A stretch of DNA of 64,000 nt, taken from Podarcis vaucheri (taxonomy: Eukaryota). Positions 3,400 through 56,650 of this stretch are shown here, in pieces. How positions within the stretch are numbered: position 1 is the first letter of the stretch; the number at the start of each line of letters is the position of its first letter. Location of the stretch: NCBI GenBank assembly GCA_965113315.1, contig OZ220365.1. The stretch is one strand, 5' to 3'. The position numbers and the translations under genes are program-made. The notes beneath the pieces were generated by a model. It was not told the DNA's origin. It searched no databases and saw nothing but the letters and a program-made list of their open reading frames with translations.

Positions 3400-3850
3400 A
3401 AAGGTCACCAATGAGGGGGATGATCGAACTGCCCATCAAACTGGAAAAGGGCCTTACCCCAAATGTATCTTCATCATAGGCAGGCCCACCAACAAGTATC
3501 TGTGTCCCAAGCTGTTTAAGGCTTGATATTCTAATGTTGAAACCTTAAAATTGGGCCCAGTTGCATATAAGCAGCCTGTGCAGGAGTCATATTATTTCCC
3601 AGTACAGCAATGTGACTTCCATAGTCTGCACTGGATGCAGATTCTGGACAGTCTTCGGGTTTACCCTACATAGATTGCATTGCAATAGTCGACACCTGAG
3701 GTTACCAAGGTATGAATGAGAATGGCCAAGCTATCTCAGTCAAAGAAGCAGAAACAGCCAGCTAACTAGCTACAGCTGGGAAAGGCATTCCAAACCACTG
3801 AAGCCGCCTGGGCTTCTGGTGCCCATTTCAAATCCAAGAGTAACCTCCCC
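3400..3850 (-). mobile_element. Degraded L2 LINE fragment
   Basis: Antisense L2 RT-like text (gcattgcaatagtc...gaggttaccaagg...atggccaag). Confidence 0.55.
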
Positions 3851-4700
3851 TCTCAAGCTGAATACCAGTTGATGGAAACCACAAGAGGAGAGCGAGCTCT
3901 TGGGTGCGGGTCCTGTTAGTGGGTTTCCCTTTTGCATCTGGTTGGCCACAGTGTGAGCAGGATGCTCAAATTAGATGGGTTGTTGTCCTGATCTAGCAGG
4001 CTCTTCTTATGTTCTTGCGTTCACGCAAAGTATTTCATTTGATAGAGAGGCTTCATGTTTTTTTATTTACTAGGATTGGGGACATTTTGTTCTAATCCAG
4101 ATGGGTCATGTCCTAATACTTCTGACCCAGAGTTTGAGAACTCGCATTTATGTAAGGTTTGGGAACCACAGTTCCAACTCAAGCTCTCGTTCCTTGTGTC
4201 AGGAAATGGCAACCTCCGATTTCTCAACAATCCGTAACTGCCCTTAAATGACTTTATATTCTTCTGGGACTCCCTGGGAGCCTCTGGAAGTTATCCAGCA
4301 ATCCTGGTCAGCAGAGCAACAGAGTCATGACACATCTGGAAGATGTCTATGTGTGGCTGTGCAAATCTAGTGGTATCTCACTGACTTAAACAATAAAAAG
4401 TAGAGTAAAGAGAAATCTATTACAAATGCAATTATTGACCCCTGGTATTGATCAGCTGAGATGGGGGTGTGTGTATTTGACCCCTAATTCCAAGGGGGTA
4501 TATCTACTCATGATTTAGAGATGATTAAGTCAAAAGGTCCTGTGGTTGTGACACCAGTAAGCATAAGCCCTACAAATGTATTCAGTGATTTAACTGGCTT
4601 TAATATTTACTTCTTATTATCTTTACACTCTACTTTTCCTTCAAGCTGCTCAAGGTGGTGGACATGGTTCTTCCCCTTCCTATTTTATCCTTACAGATGA

Positions 4701-5056
4701 AAAGGCAAAGGTAAAGGACCTCTGGACATTTAAATTCAGTCAAAGGCGACTATGGTGTGCAGCACTCGTTTCACTTTTAGGCCGAGGGAGCCGGTGTTTG
4801 TCCACAGACAGCTTTCTGGGTCATGTGGCCAGCATGACTAAACCACTTCTGGTGCAATGGAACACCGTGATGGAAACCAGAGTGCATGGAAACGCCATTT
4901 ACCTTCCTGCTGCAGCAGTACCTATTTATCTACTTGCACTGGCGTGCTTTTGAACTGTTAGGTTGGCAGGAGCTGAGAGAGAGCAATGGGAGCTCACCCC
5001 ATCGCAGGGATTCAAACTGCTGACCTTCTGATTGGGAAGCCCAAGAGGCTTAGTGT
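4701..5056 (-). mobile_element. Sauria SINE (Squam1)
   Basis: (AAAGGT)n tail at left; body is reverse-complementary to the 27015-27357 copy. Confidence 0.9.
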
Positions 5057-20409: not shown

Positions 20410-20975
20410 ATAACAAACAACGCGCTCTCATTTTCCGCATGCGCGGTGCGATGCAAGGCTTCTCCACACACCCCCACACCTCGCGCGCTTGCGGCGCAAG
20501 GCACTCTGGGTAGCGTTGCCCGGTTACCGTTGCTATGGAGGGCCTAGCGCCCCCTCGCCGCTCTCTCGCCCCGACAAAGCTTTGATTTGCGGAGATGGTG
20601 AAGCAAACGATCCAGATCTATGCCCGGGTCAAGCCCCTCGGCAGGAGGCAGCCGCCGGGGGTAGGTGGCGCGGGGACGAACCAGCTGCGTCCGAGGGACG
20701 GAACGAACGAATAAATAAATAAATAAATATACAGGACGTCACGGGGGGGGGGTGGAGTGGCTGCTGCTGCATGTGAGGGGCGCCCTTTGGCAGGGAAGGG
20801 ATGGAGGGGACCCTGCTGTGGAGACGAGCTGGAAGAGGAAGGCGAGGAGGGCGGCCCGCTGAGCAAGTTGTGGCTTGGTGTGGCTGATGCCTGAGAAGCG
20901 AATGCGCCGCCTTAGGCAGTCGCAGGCGCGTCGAGAGCGAATCCAGACGATCTTTCTGTTCACGTGATTGGTAGA
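20410..20975. promoter_or_regulatory. CpG island / KIF6 promoter with X-box-like, NRF1-like, E-box and CCAAT motifs
   Basis: Dense CpG around exon 1; GTTGCCCGGTTAC (20515-20527), GTTGCTATGGAG (20529-20540), CGCATGCGC (~20436), CACGTGATTGG (20961-20971). Confidence 0.85.
20595..20660 (+). CDS. KIF6: KIF6 coding exon 1 (MVKQTIQIYARVKPLGRRQPPG)
   Basis: ATG in GAGATGG context; in-frame upstream TGA at 20583; donor GGG|GTAGGT at 20661. Confidence 0.95.
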
Positions 20976-21668: not shown

Positions 21669-21916
21669 CAGTGGTACCTCGGCATGCAAATGGGATCTGT
21701 TCCGGATCCCTGTTCGCATCCTGAATAGAACGTAAGACGCGTCGGCGCGTCGGCCTTGTTTTGCCACTTCTGCACATGCGTTTGACGTCATTTTGAGCGT
21801 CTGCGCATGTGCGAGCGGCGAAACCCGGAAATAACGCGCTCCGTTACTTTCGGGTTGCCGCAGAGCGCAACCTGAAAGCACTCAACCTGAAGCACATTCA
21901 ACCCGAGGTATGACTG
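21669..21916. mobile_element. Tigger/pogo-type MITE
   Basis: TA-CAGTGGTACCTCGG...CCGAGGTATGACTG-TA. Confidence 0.88.
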
Positions 21917-22239
21917 TACAGAACAGTAAATAAATAAATGACATTACGTTCTGTAGAATCAATTAAATTATGTATTTGCGTATCTTTAACTGTTGAATGG
22001 CAGACAACTCTGCAACTGAAACTCTTTCCTCAATTCCCCCTGCCAACTATGATTAATAGGAAATGGTTTACCTGCTATTATGCAAGTTTTTTTAAAATGC
22101 AAAGAACTTGCCAGAAAAAAATAACAACCTATGGTATCTATCTGCACCATGAAGCCCCTGCCCTAATTGGCTCACTATGGCAATCATAGTCCCTGGTAAT
22201 TACCTGCAAGACTTGTTTGGTAGTTGGAGTAGGGCTTAA

Positions 22240-26558: not shown

Positions 26559-26764
26559 CAGAGCTTTCCAGACTTTTCATGTTGGTGATACACTTTTTAG
26601 ACATGCATCTTTTCATGACATAGTGATTCAGTTTTACTAGCAAACCAGAGGTTAAACTAACCCCTTTTCAGCCCTGGGAGGAGCGTAGGGAGCGTTTGTG
26701 TGACACACCTACACATTGCAGCCGACACACTAATGTGTCACGGCACATAGTTTGGAAAGCTCTG
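26559..26764. mobile_element. hAT MITE
   Basis: TIR CAGAGCTTTCCA/TGGAAAGCTCTG; perfect TSD GATTACAT. Confidence 0.92.
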
Positions 26765-27014: not shown

Positions 27015-27357
27015 TGCTGTGGGTTAAACCACAGAGCCTAGGACTTGCTGATCAGAAGGTTGGCGGTTCGAATTCCCACGACAGGGTGAGCTCCTGTTGC
27101 TCGGTCCCTGCTCCTGCCAACCTAGCAGTTCGAAAGCATGTCAAAGTGCAAGTAGATAAATAGGTACTGCTCCGGCGGGAAGGTAAACGGCGTTTCCATG
27201 TGCTGCTCTGGTTCGCCAGAAGCGGCTTAGTCATGCTGGCCACATGACCCGGAAGCTGTACGCCGGCTTCCTCAACCAATAAAGCAAGATGAGCGCTGCA
27301 ACCCCAGAGTCGGTCACGACTGGACCTAATGGTCAGGGGTCCCTTTACCTTTACCTT
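27015..27357 (+). mobile_element. Sauria SINE (Squam1)
   Basis: tRNA-like head with GGTTCGAAT B box, body, (ACCTTT)n tail. Confidence 0.92.
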
Positions 27358-30151: not shown

Positions 30152-30901
30152 AGGCCCAACAGACAGTGGCAGAACTTCATGCTCTGGCACCGGGGGCGGA
30201 GAACAGGTGGGGCGGGGCTGGCACGCATCCTGGGGGTGGGGCGCGTGTTCTGGGGTGGGGCACACAACCTGCGGGGGTGCCCAGCACTGGCGGGGGCAGC
30301 CGCGATGGAACCCCACTGGGATCATGCTCCCCCCGCCCCCCTCTTCCTCCGCCAGTGCCAACAGAGACTCAATTTCCTCAGGGTCTTGCGAAAGAACAAT
30401 GTTAAACAACAATTGATGACTTCCTTCTACCAGTCCACAACAGAAAGTGTCCGCTCATATTGTATCACAGTGTGGTACGTTGGCTTGACAGCCACGGACA
30501 GAAAGTCTTTACAGAGTGTGGTGAACACAGCACATCATATCACGGGCTGTCCCCTGAGCCCACTAGATGACATTGCAAGGGACCAATGCCTTAGGAGAGC
30601 GAGAAAAATTCTCCGGGATGATTCACACCCCGGGCAGCACCTCTTTAATCTTCTACCCTCGGGCAGGATATATAGAAGTATAATCAGTCATACCAACAGG
30701 CTAAAAAACAGTTTCTATCTGTGGGCTGTTTGGCTGCTGAACGGAAAATAATATAGTGCAACTGACTTTCGGGGTTGGTGTGTTGTGCGACAAACACACA
30801 GAGTGCAATGAGATTGAGTGTTGGGGAGGGAGGGAAGCTCGGTTAATTTCATTGTACACAGGTTGTACATTGACAATAAAGGTATTATTATTATTATTAT
30901 T
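30152..30901 (+). mobile_element. 5'-truncated Rex1/Babar LINE (ORF C-terminus, 3' UTR and (TAT)n tail)
   Basis: AQQRLNFLRVLRK...ITVWY...HPGQHLFNLLPSGRIYRS...TNRLKNSFY; 3' end TTCATTGTAC...GACAATAAAGG(TAT)n. Confidence 0.9.
30164..30357. mobile_element. GC-rich hAT MITE nested in Rex1
   Basis: Imperfect TIR CAGTGGCAGAA/CTCCGCCAGTG; perfect TSD CCAACAGA at 30156-30163 and 30358-30365. Confidence 0.88.
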
Positions 30902-31240: not shown

Positions 31241-31583
31241 CAGTGGTGCCCCGCAAGACGAATGCCTCACAAGACGGAAAACCCGCTAGACGAAAGGGTT
31301 TTCCGTTTTTGAGCTGCTTCACAAGACGATTTTCCCTATGGGCTTGCTTTGCAAGACGAAAACGTCTTGCAAGTGTTCCGATTTTTTTTCACTCCCCCCC
31401 TTTTCTAAGCCGCTAAGCCGCTAATAGCCTTTTAGCCGCTAATCCGCTAATCCTTTAATAGCCGCTAAACCGCTAATAGCGCTAATCCGCTAAGCCGCTA
31501 ATAGGGTTGCTTCGCAAGACGAAAAAACCGCTAGACGAAGAGACTCGAGGAACGGATTAATTTCGTCTTGCGAGGCACCACTG
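31241..31583. mobile_element. Tigger/pogo-type MITE with internal minisatellite
   Basis: TA-CAGTGGTGCCCCGCAAGACGAA...TTCGTCTTGCGAGGCACCACTG-TA; (AANCCGCT)n at 31405-31504. Confidence 0.92.
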
Positions 31584-32640
31584 TACCATCTTTTGATATC
31601 CCTTAGCAAGCAGTGGTGAAGCCATACAATAGACAAACATGCATCACATCCTTCTTCTTATTCGTGTAGGTGGCTTGACATCGAGGTCGGTAGAGTCTAT
31701 TTGCAGCATGGTGGGGGAAGAAAATAATGCCCTTTTTGAATACCACTTTGACATGATTATAGGGTTTTTATTTAGCATGTTCTGGGTTTGTTTTCTTTCC
31801 TCCTTTTTAAATCTCACTGAAAAATGAAGTGTCAGAACTATAAAGATTAAAGTGGTGTGTTGTTGTTTTTTTAAAAAAGACACTCAGCTATGGAGCCACA
31901 GATCTGAAATTGTATCAAGGATTACTATGTTTTCCCTCAAACTGCTATTATAAGGCATAGTATCTTTTAAAATTTATTTTGACACAAAATCCAGATTGCC
32001 CAAGCATTCAAATTAATGTAAACTGCTTAAATTATAAACACTGCACATCTTTTTCAGGCCAATTTCTGACAGCTTTTGTGGAAAAAATGTATGCAGTGTG
32101 TATTTGCACTGAAAAAAATCCATGCTGCTAAGTGTATATATAAAGAACTGCACATATCCATGAAATGAAGAGCATTGCTAAATAGGGTTTATACTACAGA
32201 TTTGGCAGGGAGACAAAAGATGTAATAATGAGATATTTTGTTTATTTTAATGAAAATAACTTTTATCTCCAAATGAGGAAGGATATTTAAATGTATCTCC
32301 TTGAAAACATCTGTTTCAAAACTTTAAAATGACGGTAAACTTTATGTTTCTCATAAGCATTGCTACTTGAAAGTTGAATTAGTCAGTACTATGCCATATT
32401 TCACTCTGATTCTAAAGGGTGTCTATGATGGATAGAATGGAAGTACAAAGATGCCAGAAAAATAGTTTAGAGAAGGGGTGTGACTGAAATATTAATAGTT
32501 GACAACTTTCATCAGCATGTATTTTGCATACTTTGATCTCCAGTTTATTTTTAGCCAAAAATAAAAAAGCTCCCTGAATAAAAGCTTGAAACACTTCAAG
32601 ACTTGATTAGTTCTTGAGTGAAAAATAAAGTTTGTATGTA

Positions 32641-33835: not shown

Positions 33836-33961
33836 CAGTGATGGCCCTCCAGCTATATTGGGACTACAGTTCCCATCATCCCTGACCACTGGTCCTGTTA
33901 GCTAGGGATGATGGGAGTTGTAGTCCCAAAACAGCTGGAGGGCCAAGTTTGGCCATCACTG
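33836..33961. mobile_element. Hairpin hAT MITE
   Basis: TIR CAGTGATGGCC; perfect TSD TCCTAATC; near-palindromic body. Confidence 0.92.
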
Positions 33962-35430: not shown

Positions 35431-35566
35431 CAGGCACCCCCAACCTTCGGCCTTCCAGATGTTTTGGACTACAATTCCCATCATGCCTGACCACTGGTCC
35501 TGTTAGCTAGGGATCATGGGAGTTGTAGGCAAAAACATCTGGAGGGTTGCAAGTGGGGGATGCCTG
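35431..35566. mobile_element. Hairpin hAT MITE
   Basis: CAGGCACCCC/GGGGATGCCTG; perfect TSD GTTTATCT. Confidence 0.92.
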
Positions 35567-36891: not shown

Positions 36892-37039
36892 TGCTCTAGC
36901 TGGCTATAATGGCACCATATTTGCTTATGGACAGACGGGCAGTGGCAAGACCTTTACCATAACAGGAGGAGCAGAACGTTACAGTGATAGGGGCATAATT
37001 CCACGGACACTATCTTACATATTTCAGCAGTTGCAGAAG
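36892..37039 (+). CDS. KIF6: KIF6 exon 4, P-loop ([49 protein letters not shown])
   Basis: Acceptor ctttcag|, donor AAG|gtacag; kinesin Walker A motif. Confidence 0.97.
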
Positions 37040-38991
37040 GTACAGGTCATTCTCTCTGATCATTTTTCTTTAAAACATTTCATTAACTAAATATAATGAT
37101 ATAGCTGAGGAAAGAAATACTGATTTTATCATTATATCTGGTTGCCTTGAAATTATTATCTGTGTGAGGATGTTATGCAATTGTTATTAAAAGTTTTTAA
37201 ATGTTCTTAATTTTTAGATACTTTTAATTAGTTTTAAGATGTTAAATATGTTTTTATTTCATTTTTAACTTCTTGGTTTTTCTGCCAGGGTTCATTTAGT
37301 CATTAAAACCTCAATAAGGCTGAGATATCAGTCCTTGGAGATATATTTTCAAACCATTCACGATAAACTGATTTAGATTCTGTAGAAGACTGGTTCAGAA
37401 CCAGATACGCAGTCTGTCTTAAAAATGTATTAAAACATTATTGTTGAACTGTAAATATTCGGAGACAGAAATGTCCAAAATTCTCCCTGATTTTTGTGGG
37501 CCTTTTCTTTGTTCAATAAAGATTTGAAATACTTATGAATGATATGCAAGAGGTTTTTTCATTGATTCTGTCTGAGCAAAGAAAGGATAAATATTAGGCA
37601 ACTTTCTTTGTATAACTGCACCTGCAGACCACATGAACCAGGTAAATCTGTGAACAGTAAAAATGCAATTAAAATATTTTGTGCAGAAATGTATTTTTCT
37701 CAAGAGACTCTTTCCCGTCTGTTTTGAATTTAACATTTTTAGATCTGTTAAAAATGGTATGTGGACCAAAAGGACTAGTTAACAAGATCCCATCAAAGAC
37801 CTTGAAGGGTGAATGCCATTCATAGGACACAGCTTACAGCTGCTCCACAGGTGGCGCTGCTGATGAATGTTCATTGCTATGCTGGTTACAGACATGGCTG
37901 AATTATGAGATACAGTGTTCTGTGTTCCTAAATCCTCTAAAATGGAAGTAAATCCTGTTATTATTAATGCGACCTTACTTCCATATGAATATATTTAGGA
38001 TTAGAGGTTAGTTACTGTGAAATGCCCAAATTTACTTTAGTTTATTGCACCTGTTCCTTTGGATTCCTTGTATATTTTAGATATTTCTGCATCCTTTGAC
38101 TAATTCAGTTGCCGTTTTTTTCCTAAAATGGCTAAAAGGAGCATGTAATTATGTGGCTTCCTCATGCTCTCTTAACCATGGCTGAGAGTACGTCTGCAGT
38201 GGCCCTATCATTCTGAGTAGCAATCTGTTTTGCATTTAGTATTTTTTCTTAGTAATAGTTGGAATACAGGTTTGAGCTTAGTGTTATACTCCCTCAAACA
38301 AGATGAAACTTGAAGTAAAGGATTTTGTTAATCGGATCTAGGGAACAAAGCAGAAACTTTATTAAACTGAGAACTGATAAGTTAATGAAGAGGTTAGTAT
38401 TCTTGTCAAATAGGATGTGACAGTCTGAGAATGATTCTTCTGCAACAGGAAATGAAAGGACCTTGGTATTTTGCCATATTCCACAAAAGAGAAAATGAAA
38501 TTCTGTTTATATGTTGAAATATCAGTTGTATCACCTCATTAACCAATAGAGGCAAAGCCAAAGTGGAACATTTATGTCCTTCTGAGTTGAAACTCTCGGA
38601 TATTATTTACTGTCACTGCTTGTTCGTCCAAGCTGCAACTGAGTTAAGAGTTTTTGGTTTATAAGCCTTGACCAGTATCTCTGTTTGGCAGGAAGGTGGC
38701 ATAGAACTAGTCTGAATATATACATAAGTGGGCTTAAAAAGTTCAAATTTTAAAACAGGAAAAAATTCACTTACTGGATTGCCTCAGTTTAGTACTGGAA
38801 TGGGTCTTCGCGGTCTGTGGTCCCACATATGGGATCTCTAGCTAGGCAAAGCTAGATTCAGTATATTCTTGCACATTAGGCAGGGAGCTGGCACTCTCCC
38901 ATCTCTTCCTGGTTGGAGGTCCTAGCATATGTGCATACCCTTAGAGGTGCATGCAACTTCCAGCTCAGTTTTCTTCTAACTGCTGTGTTAG

Positions 38992-39272
38992 GTAAAGGTA
39001 AAAGGTAAAGGACCCCTGAATGGTTAATTCCAGTCAAAAGCGACTCTGAGGTTGCGGCGCTCATCTCGCTTTCAGGCCGAGGGAGCCGGCATTTGTCCGC
39101 AGACAGCTTTCTGGATCATGTGGCCAGCATGACTAAACCGCTACTGGCACATGACTAAACCGCTACTGGAGCTCACCCCGTCACGGGAATTCGAACCGCC
39201 GACCTTCTGATCAGCAATCCCAAGAGGCTCAGTGGTTTAGACCACAGCGCCATCCGCTCCCCCCTTTTACCT
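38992..39272 (-). mobile_element. Sauria SINE, internally deleted
   Basis: (AAAGGT)n tail; head with B box; 11-bp TSD TGCTGTGTTAG at 38981-38991 and 39273-39283. Confidence 0.9.
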
Positions 39273-40546
39273 TGCTGTGTTAGAAACAACTAGTGGAAAA
39301 CTTATTACTGTAAATTTACTGAATGTGGATTATCTTGAAGGAACTGTTTGTTAAATCCAAGGTACTCAGAATGCAAAGCTCAGTCTAAAGACACTCAAGG
39401 AATCACTGAGATCACGGGTGTCAAATACAAGGCCCGCGGGCCGAATCCGGCCCGCCAGACCTCGTCATGTGGCCCCTGTAGCTGCCGCCGGCGGCCAGCC
39501 TTCACCTTTTATTCTAGGTTTTTTTGGGGGGGGGGGTTGACACAAGGAAGTTTACATGGTGCGGCTCCCTACTCGCCTCCCCCCGTCGCTCTTAAGGACG
39601 TGGTTGCTGCTTCAAATGTCTCTCAACTTGCGCCTTCGTCGTCGGGGGATGAAGCGAGGCGGGCAGCTGGCTTCTTTCTCCCGCTCACTGTTCAAAAAGA
39701 GCAAGCGGAAGGTCAGGTCTCTCCGTGCCACGGAGGGGAGTCTTTCTCCTCGGAGAAACTTTTTTATTCCAGCCTTGGATCTTCTCCGGGGTGCAAACTC
39801 GCCCTGCGGGAGGCGTCCTCTTCTCCTCCGCGCTGGATTTCACCAGCCCGGGGCTTCCCTTCCTCTTCATTTCACCTCCCTCTCCATCTTTGCACAGCCA
39901 GCCTTTCCAGGACCGACGGTGCCTGTGATCAAGTTGTTCTTTGGGAATATGGGGTGGCTGGTGGGGGGGGGTGAGTGGGAGAGAGAGGCGCGCGCACACA
40001 CTCCAAACACCCTTAAAATAAATGTAAAGTGGGGGCGGCAATGATGATGGCTGTGATGGGAGGGGGCTGTGTTGCCTGGCACCCCCTCCACTCTCCGCCC
40101 CCCACCGCCGCCTTCCTCCTCCTCCTCCTCTTGCAATTTCGCGGCAAGCCAAGCGAGGAAGGCGATCTGGCGCCCGGCTCTCGTATCTCAGCTCCACAAG
40201 TTGGACTCCGCGCCCGCGCAGCGGTGCTGGGCGGTTCTCCCAGCCTTCCGGCACATGTCAGTCCCGCTGGCACGTTCCTGGAGGAGATCGGACGCGGCTC
40301 CTTGCAGCCTTTCTATCACTCGGTCACACAATTGGGCAGCTCGCTCTCCGCCCTGCTATTAGCTCCACCTTGATCTCTCCCTCCTGCCTCGGGGAAGGAA
40401 AGGAAGAAGCCGGAGATCCAGTTGCAGGCAGCGCGCTTGCGCTCTTTCGCCTTTTGCGCTCTGCAATGGCACCCCGAGATGGGGGGGGCAGGGGAATTAG
40501 CCAAGGAAAATGAGAGTGCACAAGGCATGTTGATGCTTTCCTGACA

Positions 40547-40548
<2 letters not shown>

Positions 40549-40582
<34 letters not shown>

Positions 40583-40621
40583 CCTCCCTCCCTCCCACAC
40601 ACACATACACACACACACACA
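40549..40621. repeat. Compound (CT)n-(CCCT)n-(CA)n microsatellite
   Basis: Read directly from sequence. Confidence 0.95.
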
Positions 40622-40751
40622 TTTTATTTACAGCCCCATGTCGTGTATGTTTACTCAGAAGCCAGCCTCACTTTCTTCAACAGGAGTTTCAAGTAAATGC
40701 ACATAGGATTGCAGCAATCGTCTCATTAGGGCTCATTCTTTGTAACAACTT

Positions 40752-40823
40752 TGTTTCCTAGTTCTGCTGGATCTTTCAGCGGCCTTTGATACAATCGACC
40801 ATAACATCCTTCTGGACTGTCTA
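40752..40823 (+). mobile_element. L2-clade RT fragment inside the hAT element
   Basis: Translates CFLVLLDLSAAFDTIDHNILLDCL. Confidence 0.85.
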
Positions 40824-42298
40824 CATTATTACAAAAAACAGTAATAATTGAATGCAGTGACAATAATTTATGATAATAAAGAGTGGACACATAGTCCTAC
40901 AGATGCAACCGGCCCTTTGAGGGTGACCAAACTGCTGATGCGGCCCCCCGATGAATTTGAGTTTGACACCCCTGACTGAGATAGATACACATTTCTCTCT
41001 TACACCGCCAAGCCCAGTTTTTTTGTGTATGGTTTGAATAATGTTTGTGGAAACACCAACCATGGCATTTTGGTGGCATGGTAGGAGTGGAAAATGTGTA
41101 GCTTTGGAGAGGTGCTGCCTCTTGTAAATCGTAATCCATGGCGGGCCTTGGGGAAGGGGGAAACAGTAACAGTGAGTTGTCCTGCCCAAATATTTGTAAT
41201 ATCCATAGCCTTCCGTGTCTTCCTACAATGGGAAGCCTAGTAAAATAGAAAATAACTCACCACCTCAGTAAGCCATCCTTGGTTGATAGGAGCATATTCC
41301 ATACCCAAACAAAGGGGCAATATGAGTTGTTTTCAGGCTTTGTACATTCAGAGAACCCTTTCCACATTGGCATTCTGCCAGGGAACCTCTACAAGTTGCA
41401 AATAAGTATGGTGCAATCTAGGATGTATATTAGTGTCTGTGAGGCACTGCCAGGCCTATTGGGCTATCCACTGTCCTACATGAACTGATGGGCACAACTT
41501 AGAACACAACTGGTATTCTCTTGAGGCTGCACATTGCAAAAAAGCATTGGTAATGGACAGCAAGCTATCTTTCATTGATCCTTGTCCATCATTGGTAATG
41601 CTGTGCTGCTTGTTGCTGATCTCTGTAAGCTCACATTAATTCTTGACCCTTTGCTTTCAGACCTATTAATGATGGCAATTCTGTGCCATTTCTTTAGTCT
41701 GAAGGTTCAGAGATGCACGTGGAGATTGGGGGGCTGGTGGTTGATGTCACACCGATACCTACCTCAAGCAGTGAGAAGAGATGCTGTTCCCCACCGGGGT
41801 CCAAAGGGGAAGATTCCTTTCTTGGGATCTCTCCCAAATGAAAGATTGTAGATTCTCAGCAGACTATTATTTTCTGCTCCCCATCAGTTTTCAGATTGTC
41901 TGAGCCAACAAAGCAATTCAAGAGGAGAATGCAGACAGATCTGGTCACAGAAACATGGATCATATATATTTGTACAAGTATGGAACCATTAAATAAATGT
42001 GATAACATATTTTGAGAAAGGTTAATAAGTAACCAGTTGTACTGCTGTTGCTCTTTTATTATAGTCTTACCATGTTTTATTCTTAATTTTATTACTGTCT
42101 TTCTCAGTATGCCAAAATGCTTATAATGGAACATTATAATTAAAAATGGGGAGGAAAACCACCTTCTAATAATGTGTGTAAACCTTTCAAAGAAGGACAT
42201 ACTGTAAGAAGGTAAACAACACAAAATATGTACTGTCAGTGTATCCTAGGTTTTTAGATAAATATTGATCCCATCTTTTTATTTTTCTTCTAATTCAG

Positions 42299-42408
42299 GA
42301 TAGCAGCAAAGTATACACAACACATATTTCCTATTTAGAAATTTATAATGAGTGTGGTTATGATCTGCTGGACCCACGACATGAAGCCTCCAAACTAGAA
42401 GATTTGCC
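42299..42408 (+). CDS. KIF6: KIF6 exon 5 (DSSKVYTTHISYLEIYNECGYDLLDPRHEASKLEDLP)
   Basis: Long pyrimidine tract then ttcag|, donor CC|gtgagt; SYLEIYNE kinesin motif. Confidence 0.97.
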
Positions 42409-45003: not shown

Positions 45004-45169
45004 GTGAGAATCTTTGACTGTAAACAGTTCAATTACCCTCTTGTTGAACTCAAAAGACTTAATATCTTTATTTCTTCTCTTTTGTAAGTCATTTAACACA
45101 AGACTTCAAGTAATTTACAATCAACTTTAGAAACTTTTCAAATTCCATCAAATGCACAGGTCAAGAGGA

Positions 45170-45530
45170 AAATCTTCACCTGGTGCCGATAAGATGTCAG
45201 TGTTGGCACCAGGTGAGCCTCACTTGGGAAAGCATTCCATAGGCAGACAGCCACAACCAAAAAGGCACTTTCTTTTGAGGATCTCTCAGGGGTAGAGCTT
45301 CCAGGGGAAGGCCCCCGGAAGACATTTGTAAGGTCTGGATGAACATAGTCTGGATGTATTCTTGTTGGGAAAGGCAGTCAGTCATTTTTGGTGGCTCCAA
45401 GCTGCATAAAGGTTTATATGTTAAAACCTGCAGCTTATATTGGGCCTCGAAATGTATCAGCAGACAGTGTAATTGTGTTATTGCTAGTGTTATTTGGTCA
45501 GCAATGGAGGAGTGTGCCCTTGGGGGTGAA
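45170..45530 (-). mobile_element. L2 LINE 3' remnant
   Basis: Minus ORF has QLHCLLIHFEAQYKLQVLTYKPLCSLEP, a degenerate L2 ORF2 C-terminus. Confidence 0.75.
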
Positions 45531-47264: not shown

Positions 47265-48540
47265 GTTTAATGTAAAGTTTTGCACCTAGTTAGGCAAAAT
47301 AAGATGCACAAACATAGAATGGGTGGCACAAAACTTGACAACGGTACAGGATGACCACAAGTGAAACGTGAATGCAGTTCAACAGAATCACAAGAAATAA
47401 CATCCAGATCATAATAAATAATGGTACCAGTCTATTCTGGTTTGGTCAGAACTCTCCTGGAGTACTGTATCAAGATCTGAGCACTGCAGTTAAAAAAAGA
47501 CACTAACAAACTGGAACATGTCGCAAGAAGGGTGAGGGGTCTGAAGATCATGCCCTATGAAGAACAGTTGAAGGAGTTGGGCGTGTTTAGCTTGGAGAAG
47601 AGATACTAGCCATAGTCAAATATTTGAAAGGCTGTCTGCTACATAAATGGCAGAAGAAATTAGTTTTCTCTTGCTCCAGATCGTAGAATGCAAACTAACA
47701 GTTTCACATTGGGAAAATGGAATGACAATGGCATGGATTGCCTTGGTAGGTGATGGGCTCCCTTGCATTGGTTTCTTTTTTAAAAAAAACAAAACAGAGG
47801 TTGCATTGGTTTGTTTTTTTTAAATAGATGGCTGGATGGTCACCTATCAGGGATGCTACAGCAGTGGATTTCCTGCATAGCTGTCAAGTGTCCCTTATTT
47901 GAAGGGACAGTCCCTTATTGCAGTGCCATGTCCCGCTGCTGTCCCTTATTGATGGATGTCCCTTAAATGTCCCTTAAATGATGTCCCTTAAATTTCAAAG
48001 GAAGCAGCTCCTCTCCCTCCCTCCCTGCAGGCCAGGGAGGAGGGAGGCTCCAACTGTGTTGCTTGGCTGTGTTTCTCACCCAATAAGAAGTCTAAGAATG
48101 ACTGGGGGGTGGAGCTTGCATGCCTTGTGTGTGGCTAGTTAATGCAAGCTGAGGGGTTTTTTGAATGCTGGACGCCATTTTGTTGCACGTGCTGCTGCAA
48201 ACTTTGCAGTGCACAGCTAGGCCGGGGAGCCATCTTAAGTTGAGGCTGCATAGGCCTTGTGGTGCATGTGATTCAGATTCTATTCAGTTGAACCTCTGGT
48301 TACAAAGTGTTCTCGAAGCTAACAGCATGAATTTGACCAGACTGCAGGAGGACAGAAAGACTGGAGTGCCTGGAACAGGTGAGGCTGCAGGTCCCTTATT
48401 TTGGCTGCTGGTCCCTTATTTTCAAGGCTGCTGGTCCCTTATTTTCAAATCTGTAAGTTGACAGCTATGATTTCCTGCATTGTCAGAAGGTTGATTATAG
48501 ATGACCTCTGGTGTACCTTCCAAATCTATGATTCTATTTC
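47265..48540 (+). mobile_element. CR1 ORF2 3' remnant interrupted by hAT element
   Basis: ctggagtactgt...aaactggaac...tttagcttggagaagag...; resumes after TSD to atgattctat tail. Confidence 0.8.
47876..48469. mobile_element. Non-autonomous hAT with GTCCCTTA subterminal repeats
   Basis: Perfect 12-bp TIR CATAGCTGTCAA; perfect TSD ATTTCCTG at 47868-47875 and 48470-48477. Confidence 0.93.
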
Positions 48541-56514: not shown

Positions 56515-56650
56515 CAGGTGTCCTCAAACTCAGCTCTCCAGATGTTTTGAGACTACAATTCCCATCATTCCTGATGACTGGTCCTGCTAGCTAGGGATCA
56601 AGGGAATTGAAGGCCAAAAACATCTGGAGGGCCGAGTTTGAGGAAGCCTG
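56515..56650. mobile_element. Hairpin hAT MITE
   Basis: CAGGTGTCCTCAAACTC/GAGTTTGAGGAAGCCTG; perfect TSD GTTTTAAA. Confidence 0.92.

Follow-up and report, generated by a model that had tools for sequence, protein, structure and literature searches.

A transposon of hAT type, 1,562 bp in length (39413–40974), lies inside intron 4 of a lizard kinesin-9 gene, and the question raised by this locus is where the DNA between its two ends came from and whether it arrived there in one piece or in several. An earlier note, made from the sequence alone, had described the interior as a patchwork captured from the host, made up of ~1 kb of GC- and CpG-rich DNA resembling a promoter, a compound microsatellite, a piece of another short repeat and a fragment of LINE reverse transcriptase (RT). 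We have followed up this description within the window, i.e. the whole 64-kb stretch of Podarcis vaucheri DNA that was analysed, and have compared the element with published transposons that carry cargo.

Results

In the host gene, exons 1–5 are bordered by AG/GT and keep a kinesin frame open, and intron 4, numbered from the ATG exon, spans 37040–42298. The earlier note had named this intron as intron 4 of KIF6; the intron stands, and the gene is presumably KIF6. The host protein matches Pfam Kinesin, and KIF9 is among the PDB chains nearest to it. A CpG island (20420–20960; 62 % GC, CpG o/e 0.95) covers the first coding exon of the host gene.

The element is bounded by a perfect 8-bp target site duplication (TSD) and by terminal inverted repeats (TIRs) in which 12 of the 13 outermost bases agree, or 16 of 19 in a separate comparison. 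Both had been reported earlier, and their combination lies far above chance. When the 64-kb window was scanned for perfect 8-bp direct repeats with 13-bp TIRs, three sites were found at no more than one TIR mismatch and six at no more than two, whereas 30 block shuffles of the window, used as the chance control, gave a single site in total (mean 0.03) at the stricter setting and a mean of 0.1 at the looser one. All six real sites start with CA, which makes hAT-type elements a common feature of the window, the one at 39413–40974 being the longest. The other five lie at 47876–48469, 26559–26764, 56515–56650, 33836–33961 and 35431–35566. The absence of a transposase from the interior, also reported earlier, was borne out in that none of 19 translated stretches matched any Pfam transposase family, the best Pfam match among the 19 being to an unrelated family (E 0.067). 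The features of the element are collected in Table 1.

Table 1. Positions in the window of the parts of the element and of the neighbouring host exons
Feature	Position	Strand	Remarks
Host kinesin exon 4 (P-loop)	36892..37039	+	Upstream of insertion
Left TSD ACTGAGAT	39405..39412	+	8/8 identical to right copy
Left TIR	39413..39425	+	12/13 with right TIR
Left transposon end	39413..39480	+	GGCCC in three copies, short GC hairpin; inner limit approximate, may reach further in
GC/CpG-rich block	39481..40549		60 % GC, o/e 0.69; contains four GC boxes; matches no family of proteins or RNAs
Compound microsatellite (CT)n(CCCT)n(CA)n	40550..40621
AT-richer stretch, 40 % GC	40622..40751		Holds putative short-repeat remnant
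LINE RT fragment, 72 bp	40752..40823	+	Residues 634–657 of 1,009-aa Podarcis muralis protein; both ends cut
Right transposon end	40824..40974	+	AT-rich, AATAAA at 40875, two GGCCC; inner limit is end of LINE match
Right TIR	40957..40974	-	18/18 fit to TcMar-N15_AC TIR
Right TSD ACTGAGAT	40975..40982	+	8/8 identical to left copy
Host kinesin exon 5	42299..42408	+	Downstream of insertion

The junctions read ...GAT/CAC and CTG/ACT..., with no TA at either, so that the TA target duplication of Tc1/mariner is absent. The target consensus of the Anolis HT families, NTCTAGAN, belongs to the Buster/Charlie branch and has TA at its centre; the single target site ACTGAGAT agrees with it at three of six fixed positions and lacks the TA, though one site says little about a consensus. 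Of the two termini, the right (CAGGG) fits the hAT terminal motif YARNG and the left (CACGG) deviates from it at base 3 (PMC3014272). Copies of the motif GGCCC are confined to the two ends, three of them in the leftmost 63 bp and two in the rightmost 64 bp.

A published TIR resembles that of the Podarcis element closely. Anolis TcMar-N15_AC, a family of 524 bp with 498 copies, 12 % divergence and a TA TSD, is filed as Tc1/mariner, and an 18-base TIR is given for it in Table 2 of its source (PMC3014272); the right end of the Podarcis element fits this TIR at 18 of 18 bases and the left end at 16 of 18, the C/G ambiguity at base 3 mirroring the difference between left and right ends. Elsewhere in the window, one other place alone reaches 15 of 18. 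The likeness observed is that of the TIRs. Unlike TcMar-N15_AC, the Podarcis element is flanked by an 8-bp TSD and lacks TA at its junctions, so that either TcMar-N15_AC is a misfiled hAT or the likeness is limited to the TIR; judged by these sequence matches, the Anolis family may be a misclassified hAT. The recognizable left end of the Podarcis element measures only ~68 bp, and in the Buster element AnBT left ends of 64 bp hardly transpose (PMC12637253), from which it follows that either some of the GC block derives from the transposon itself or the structure is poorly mobile. A composite of two whole MITEs was dismissed, as inner TIRs are absent.

Foreign origin of the cargo is, by sequence comparison, demonstrated for the 72-bp LINE piece alone. 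The fragment described earlier proved to be exactly 72 bp long; it encodes 24 RT residues with a Pfam RVT_1 match at E 0.006, below the curated cut-off, and is presumably of L2 type. Protein searches with these residues returned 27 hits, 12 of them named Podarcis muralis records, 11 of which match 23 of the 24 residues and one 22. A named starfish record matches only 19, which marks the piece as lacertid-type DNA; two Thiolapillus-labelled records match 21, and 12 unnamed records among the 27 hits were left out of the argument on origin. The reference protein is a 1,009-aa endonuclease-RT, and the sole change from it is Arg to Cys at a TGT codon, which would be the product expected from CpG deamination. 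The piece begins and ends within ORF2. Because it lacks ~350 codons together with the 3' tail, and is not flanked by any direct repeat of at least 5 bp, a nested LINE retrotransposition was rejected. Elsewhere in the window, LINEs of this type (45147–45499 and 3493–3843, both on the minus strand) are old broken fragments, 28–47 % identical to the Podarcis protein, and because of that age they are not the source. With the TSD/TIR scan, the layout of the GGCCC motifs and the LINE piece in agreement, the earlier identification as a non-autonomous hAT carrying foreign lizard DNA is supported.

The ~1 kb of GC- and CpG-rich interior was also found as described, as a block of 1,069 bp containing 66 CpGs at an o/e of 0.69; CpG o/e is 0.27 over the window and 0.24 and 0.15 in the flanks of the element. 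CpG islands are defined by a length of at least 500 bp, a GC content of at least 55 % and an o/e of at least 0.65, and the composition of the block (1,069 bp, 60 %, 0.69) lies above all three values. Its four GC boxes are not clearly an enrichment (shuffle mean 1.6; 66 of 1,000 shuffles reach four). Searches for a protein donor of the block were empty throughout: Pfam on the 19 translated stretches, 90 %-cluster protein searches of one plus-strand frame (near lengths only) and of a stretch of one minus-strand frame (longer proteins only), phmmer with the same plus-strand frame (39414–40541) against 1.84 billion representatives, a PDB search of two stretches and an ESM Atlas search of two further ORFs. 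The six frames were searched to unequal depth; a coding donor is unlikely. A signal-peptide-like ORF (40044–40370) and a helical-looking minus-strand frame (40110–40355) were taken as chance in view of these empty searches.

Rfam gave two matches, both far below the gathering score. Neither a donor nor a second copy of the element was found within the 64-kb window (39 kb upstream, 23 kb downstream), and the promoter island of the host gene itself (20420–20960) was ruled out as donor. The earlier inference of a lizard hAT family that mobilizes host regulatory DNA thus gains no support from the window. GTDB scans for the right end and BLASTN against plasmids and phages were empty, as expected, and are uninformative on copy number. 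In the sense direction of the host gene there are acceptor-like sites and a GTGAGT donor at 39971, matches to consensus only, which would delimit a candidate poison exon (39898/39902–39970) of 73 nt, causing a frameshift, or of 69 nt, containing a stop; AATAAA occurs in the same direction at 40017 and 40875.

Segmentation of the whole element by composition gave one break, at 40495, which fits a transition from island to shore. It gives no support to the patchwork proposed earlier, in the GC block or in the interior as a whole: island, microsatellite, AT-richer stretch and LINE start can be read as one locus at an island edge, so that one capture suffices, and one contiguous slice accounts for every piece. 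LINE insertions are normally 5'-truncated. The compound microsatellite was located where it had been reported, but the short repeat at ~40640–40715 could not be upheld, as nothing related to it was found in the window, Rfam gave no match that reached the gathering level, and its folding is not that of a stable hairpin (z -0.30); it may resemble a squamate short repeat. The possibility that the pieces are nested insertions with their own TSDs, raised in the earlier note, was checked and none was found: none of 19 listed exact repeats of at least 8 bp encloses a TIR pair (best 5/12), and the LINE piece has no 3' end. A 6-bp repeat (40537, 40754) flanking the microsatellite block extends into the LINE piece and was taken as chance. 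The 8-mer CCAGCCTT occurs four times in the interior (39495, 39769, 39898 and 40240) and its 6-base core CAGCCT six times, the additional copies being at 40305 and 40663, all on the plus strand. Four copies of any 8-mer were reached in 3 of 500 shuffles, and five copies of a 7-mer in 7 of 105 equally long stretches of real sequence; the motif was selected after the fact, and its recurrence could represent junction microhomology, or chance.

The undepleted CpGs had been taken as a sign of recent capture or lack of methylation. TpG/CpA ratios in the GC block (0.91 and 1.17) show no excess, those of the flanks being 1.05–1.46, and CpG o/e is 0.95 in the transposon ends and 0.69 in the cargo. Young repeats nearby in the window have CpG o/e values of 0.78–1.34; the SINE-like repeat 140 bp upstream of the element stands at 0.78, its two relatives at 0.67 and 0.36, and two TA-flanked MITEs at 1.33 and 1.34. 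As these young neighbours are equally or more CpG-rich, the retention of CpGs is explained by youth, and the element is young; recency stands, but the CpGs are not special. The older hAT at 47876–48469, with its CCCT-containing interior, has an o/e of 0.14 and an excess of TpG, and shows the likely fate of the CpGs of the Podarcis element.

The window holds further repeats. The older hAT just mentioned (594 bp) combines its CpG-depleted, CCCT-containing interior with subterminal tandem repeats. Just upstream of the element, the young SINE-like repeat (38990–39270), presumably Sauria/Squam1, has a 22-bp internal tandem duplication (39128–39169) and relatives at 4700–5055 and 27016–27357. The TA-flanked inverted-repeat elements lie at 21669–21918 and 31241–31585, both with a CpG o/e of ~1.3 and the latter with an internal 8-bp tandem array. 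A hAT-like short element extends from 21082 to ~21260, its left end matching the TIR motif of TcMar-N15_AC at 15 of 18 bases; the window scan picked up no perfect 8-bp TSD for it. A decayed plus-strand reading frame at ~30356–30760, ending in a short (TAT)n tail, is assumed to be the 3' part of another, Rex1-like, LINE.

Discussion

hATs that carry cargo are already known in lizards and frogs, and the element described here is one more such lizard hAT. Vertebrate cases are more fully documented than the earlier note supposed, as the cargo-carrying hobo_AC families of Anolis (PMC3014272) and 208 hAT Pack-TIRs in animals show; among animal Pack-TIRs, multicopy cases tend to be GC-rich (PMC8277862). 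The Anolis hobo_AC and hobo-N1 to N15 families, with lengths of 1.3–3.4 kb, are likewise lizard hATs with an 8-bp TSD and an interior of genomic DNA with TE fragments, but their TIR reads TAGGC... rather than CAGGG/CACGG, they are present in 16–689 copies (Table 1 of that source) compared with the one copy of the Podarcis element in the window, and the descriptions consulted mention no CpG-island-like cargo such as that found here (PMC3014272). Animal Pack-TIRs likewise consist of both ends of one TIR element around 100–5,000 bp of foreign DNA, the structure found here, but membership requires a unique parent that is at least 90 % identical and without TE ends in its flanks, and the 64-kb window contains none (PMC8277862); in its working the element appears to resemble a Pack-TIR, and membership hinges on a parent. 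The Podarcis cargo is larger than the 224-bp median reported for animal Pack-TIRs, among which the frog Pack-hAT-N8_XT carries 291 bp of the CAPSL 5' UTR at three sites (PMC8277862). The lone lizard in that survey yielded no cases, but no hAT consensus was annotated for it, and for that reason its zero is not a negative for lacertids (PMC8277862).

At title and abstract level, the literature yielded no description of this hAT family, no paper joining 'Pack-TIR' and 'lizard', and none with the TIR string. The Pack-MULEs of plants belong to the Mutator superfamily and have long TIRs and 9–11-bp TSDs. They are likewise TIR elements with GC-rich host cargo, but that cargo consists mostly of gene fragments with known parents (as cited in PMC8277862). 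The Helitrons of bats (Helibat) are likewise vertebrate DNA transposons that amplify promoters and 5' UTRs along with TE fragments, but they are rolling-circle elements without TIRs or an 8-bp TSD, and contributions to transcripts are reported for them (PMC4224331).

As to how the element came by its interior, we hold, at slightly better than even confidence, that the cargo was transposed, i.e. that gap repair elsewhere copied a ~1.3-kb slice of the host genome and that the loaded element then jumped into intron 4. An earlier copy elsewhere would have lost its middle, and gap repair would have copied lizard genomic DNA from one contiguous ~1.3-kb slice at the edge of a CpG island, running from the island through the microsatellite and the AT-richer shore into a 5'-truncated LINE, whose initial 72 bp would have been copied before a switch back to the transposon end, so that the 3' cut of the LINE would mark the capture breakpoint. 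The loaded element would then have moved as a unit by cut-and-paste into intron 4, with transposase supplied in trans; if it did so, one would expect sister copies flanked by different TSDs, and its CpGs would survive because little time has passed since insertion. That no parent was found in the 39 kb upstream and the 23 kb downstream speaks for a transposed cargo, since in animals the distance to the parent is below 15 kb for 160 of 281 unique Pack-TIRs, whereas multicopy ones are always distal (PMC8277862). It counts against it that neither a second copy nor a donor was seen in the 64-kb window, that the recognizable left end is so short, that 1.07 kb of the 1.34-kb interior has no source in any protein or Rfam search, that multicopy cases are rare among animal Pack-TIRs (four, or 1.4 %, in a survey of 100 genomes; PMC8277862) and, as regards a single slice, that the repetition of CCAGCCTT on one strand could mark several junctions. 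Filling in place, in which a short hAT MITE inserted first and a later internal break was repaired from a distant template, so that the cargo never transposed, is the usual animal route, an empty TE having been found at the orthologous site in 91 of 97 primate cases (PMC8277862), and it would suit the lack of a sister copy in the 64-kb window, the existence of a short 524-bp Anolis family with the same TIR (PMC3014272) and a left end that is perhaps too short for good mobility. We nevertheless consider it unlikely here: no parent lies within 15 kb on either side, whereas 57 % of such cases have one so near, the median filler of 224 bp has one sixth the length of the 1.34-kb interior (PMC8277862), and ends and cargo appear to have decayed equally little (o/e 0.95 and 0.69).

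Two further readings differ in how much of the interior they take to be host DNA and in how many pieces. That the GC block is native to the transposon family, either the long 5' UTR or promoter of an autonomous parent or old family sequence, with the last ~270 bp alone acquired, seems quite unlikely to us. There is no composition break between left end and block, another hAT in the window likewise has a GC-richer, CCCT-containing interior, AnBT has UTRs of ~500 bp and ~340 bp, and short left ends of AnBT hardly work, so the true left end may extend inward (PMC12637253); yet the 1.07-kb block is twice the length of the AnBT 5' UTR (PMC12637253), no trace of transposase follows it, and uptake of host DNA by the element is evident from the microsatellite and the LINE piece. 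A true mosaic, in which template switching would repeatedly have joined pieces from several unlinked places, promoters among them, before amplification, is very unlikely. The plus-strand recurrence of the 8-mer (four copies, a number that some 8-mer reaches in 3 of 500 shuffles) and of its core (six copies) is what junction microhomology might give, and the non-autonomous hobo families of Anolis are composites shaped by recombination (PMC3014272), but there is a single composition break, the motif is post hoc (7 of 105 equally long real stretches have five copies of a 7-mer), and one slice gives the order of the pieces with no extra events.

If the cargo was transposed as we favour, the element would most likely be a neutral passenger, to be methylated and decay. 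It is useful for the curation of lacertid repeat libraries, and the match of its TIR hints at a misfiling of Anolis TcMar-N15_AC. It would matter more if the GC block proved to be a captured promoter present in many copies. We regard it as a long shot that a recently active lacertid hAT family has captured a gene promoter, with its CpG island, and spread it widely, the copies being unmethylated and starting or diverting transcripts; were this so, the kinesin gene would contain an intragenic promoter or a poison exon, and a reptile would harbour a spreader of CpG islands resembling a Pack-MULE. With a young family, one could test directly whether the unmethylated state of a CpG island persists after a transposon moves it.
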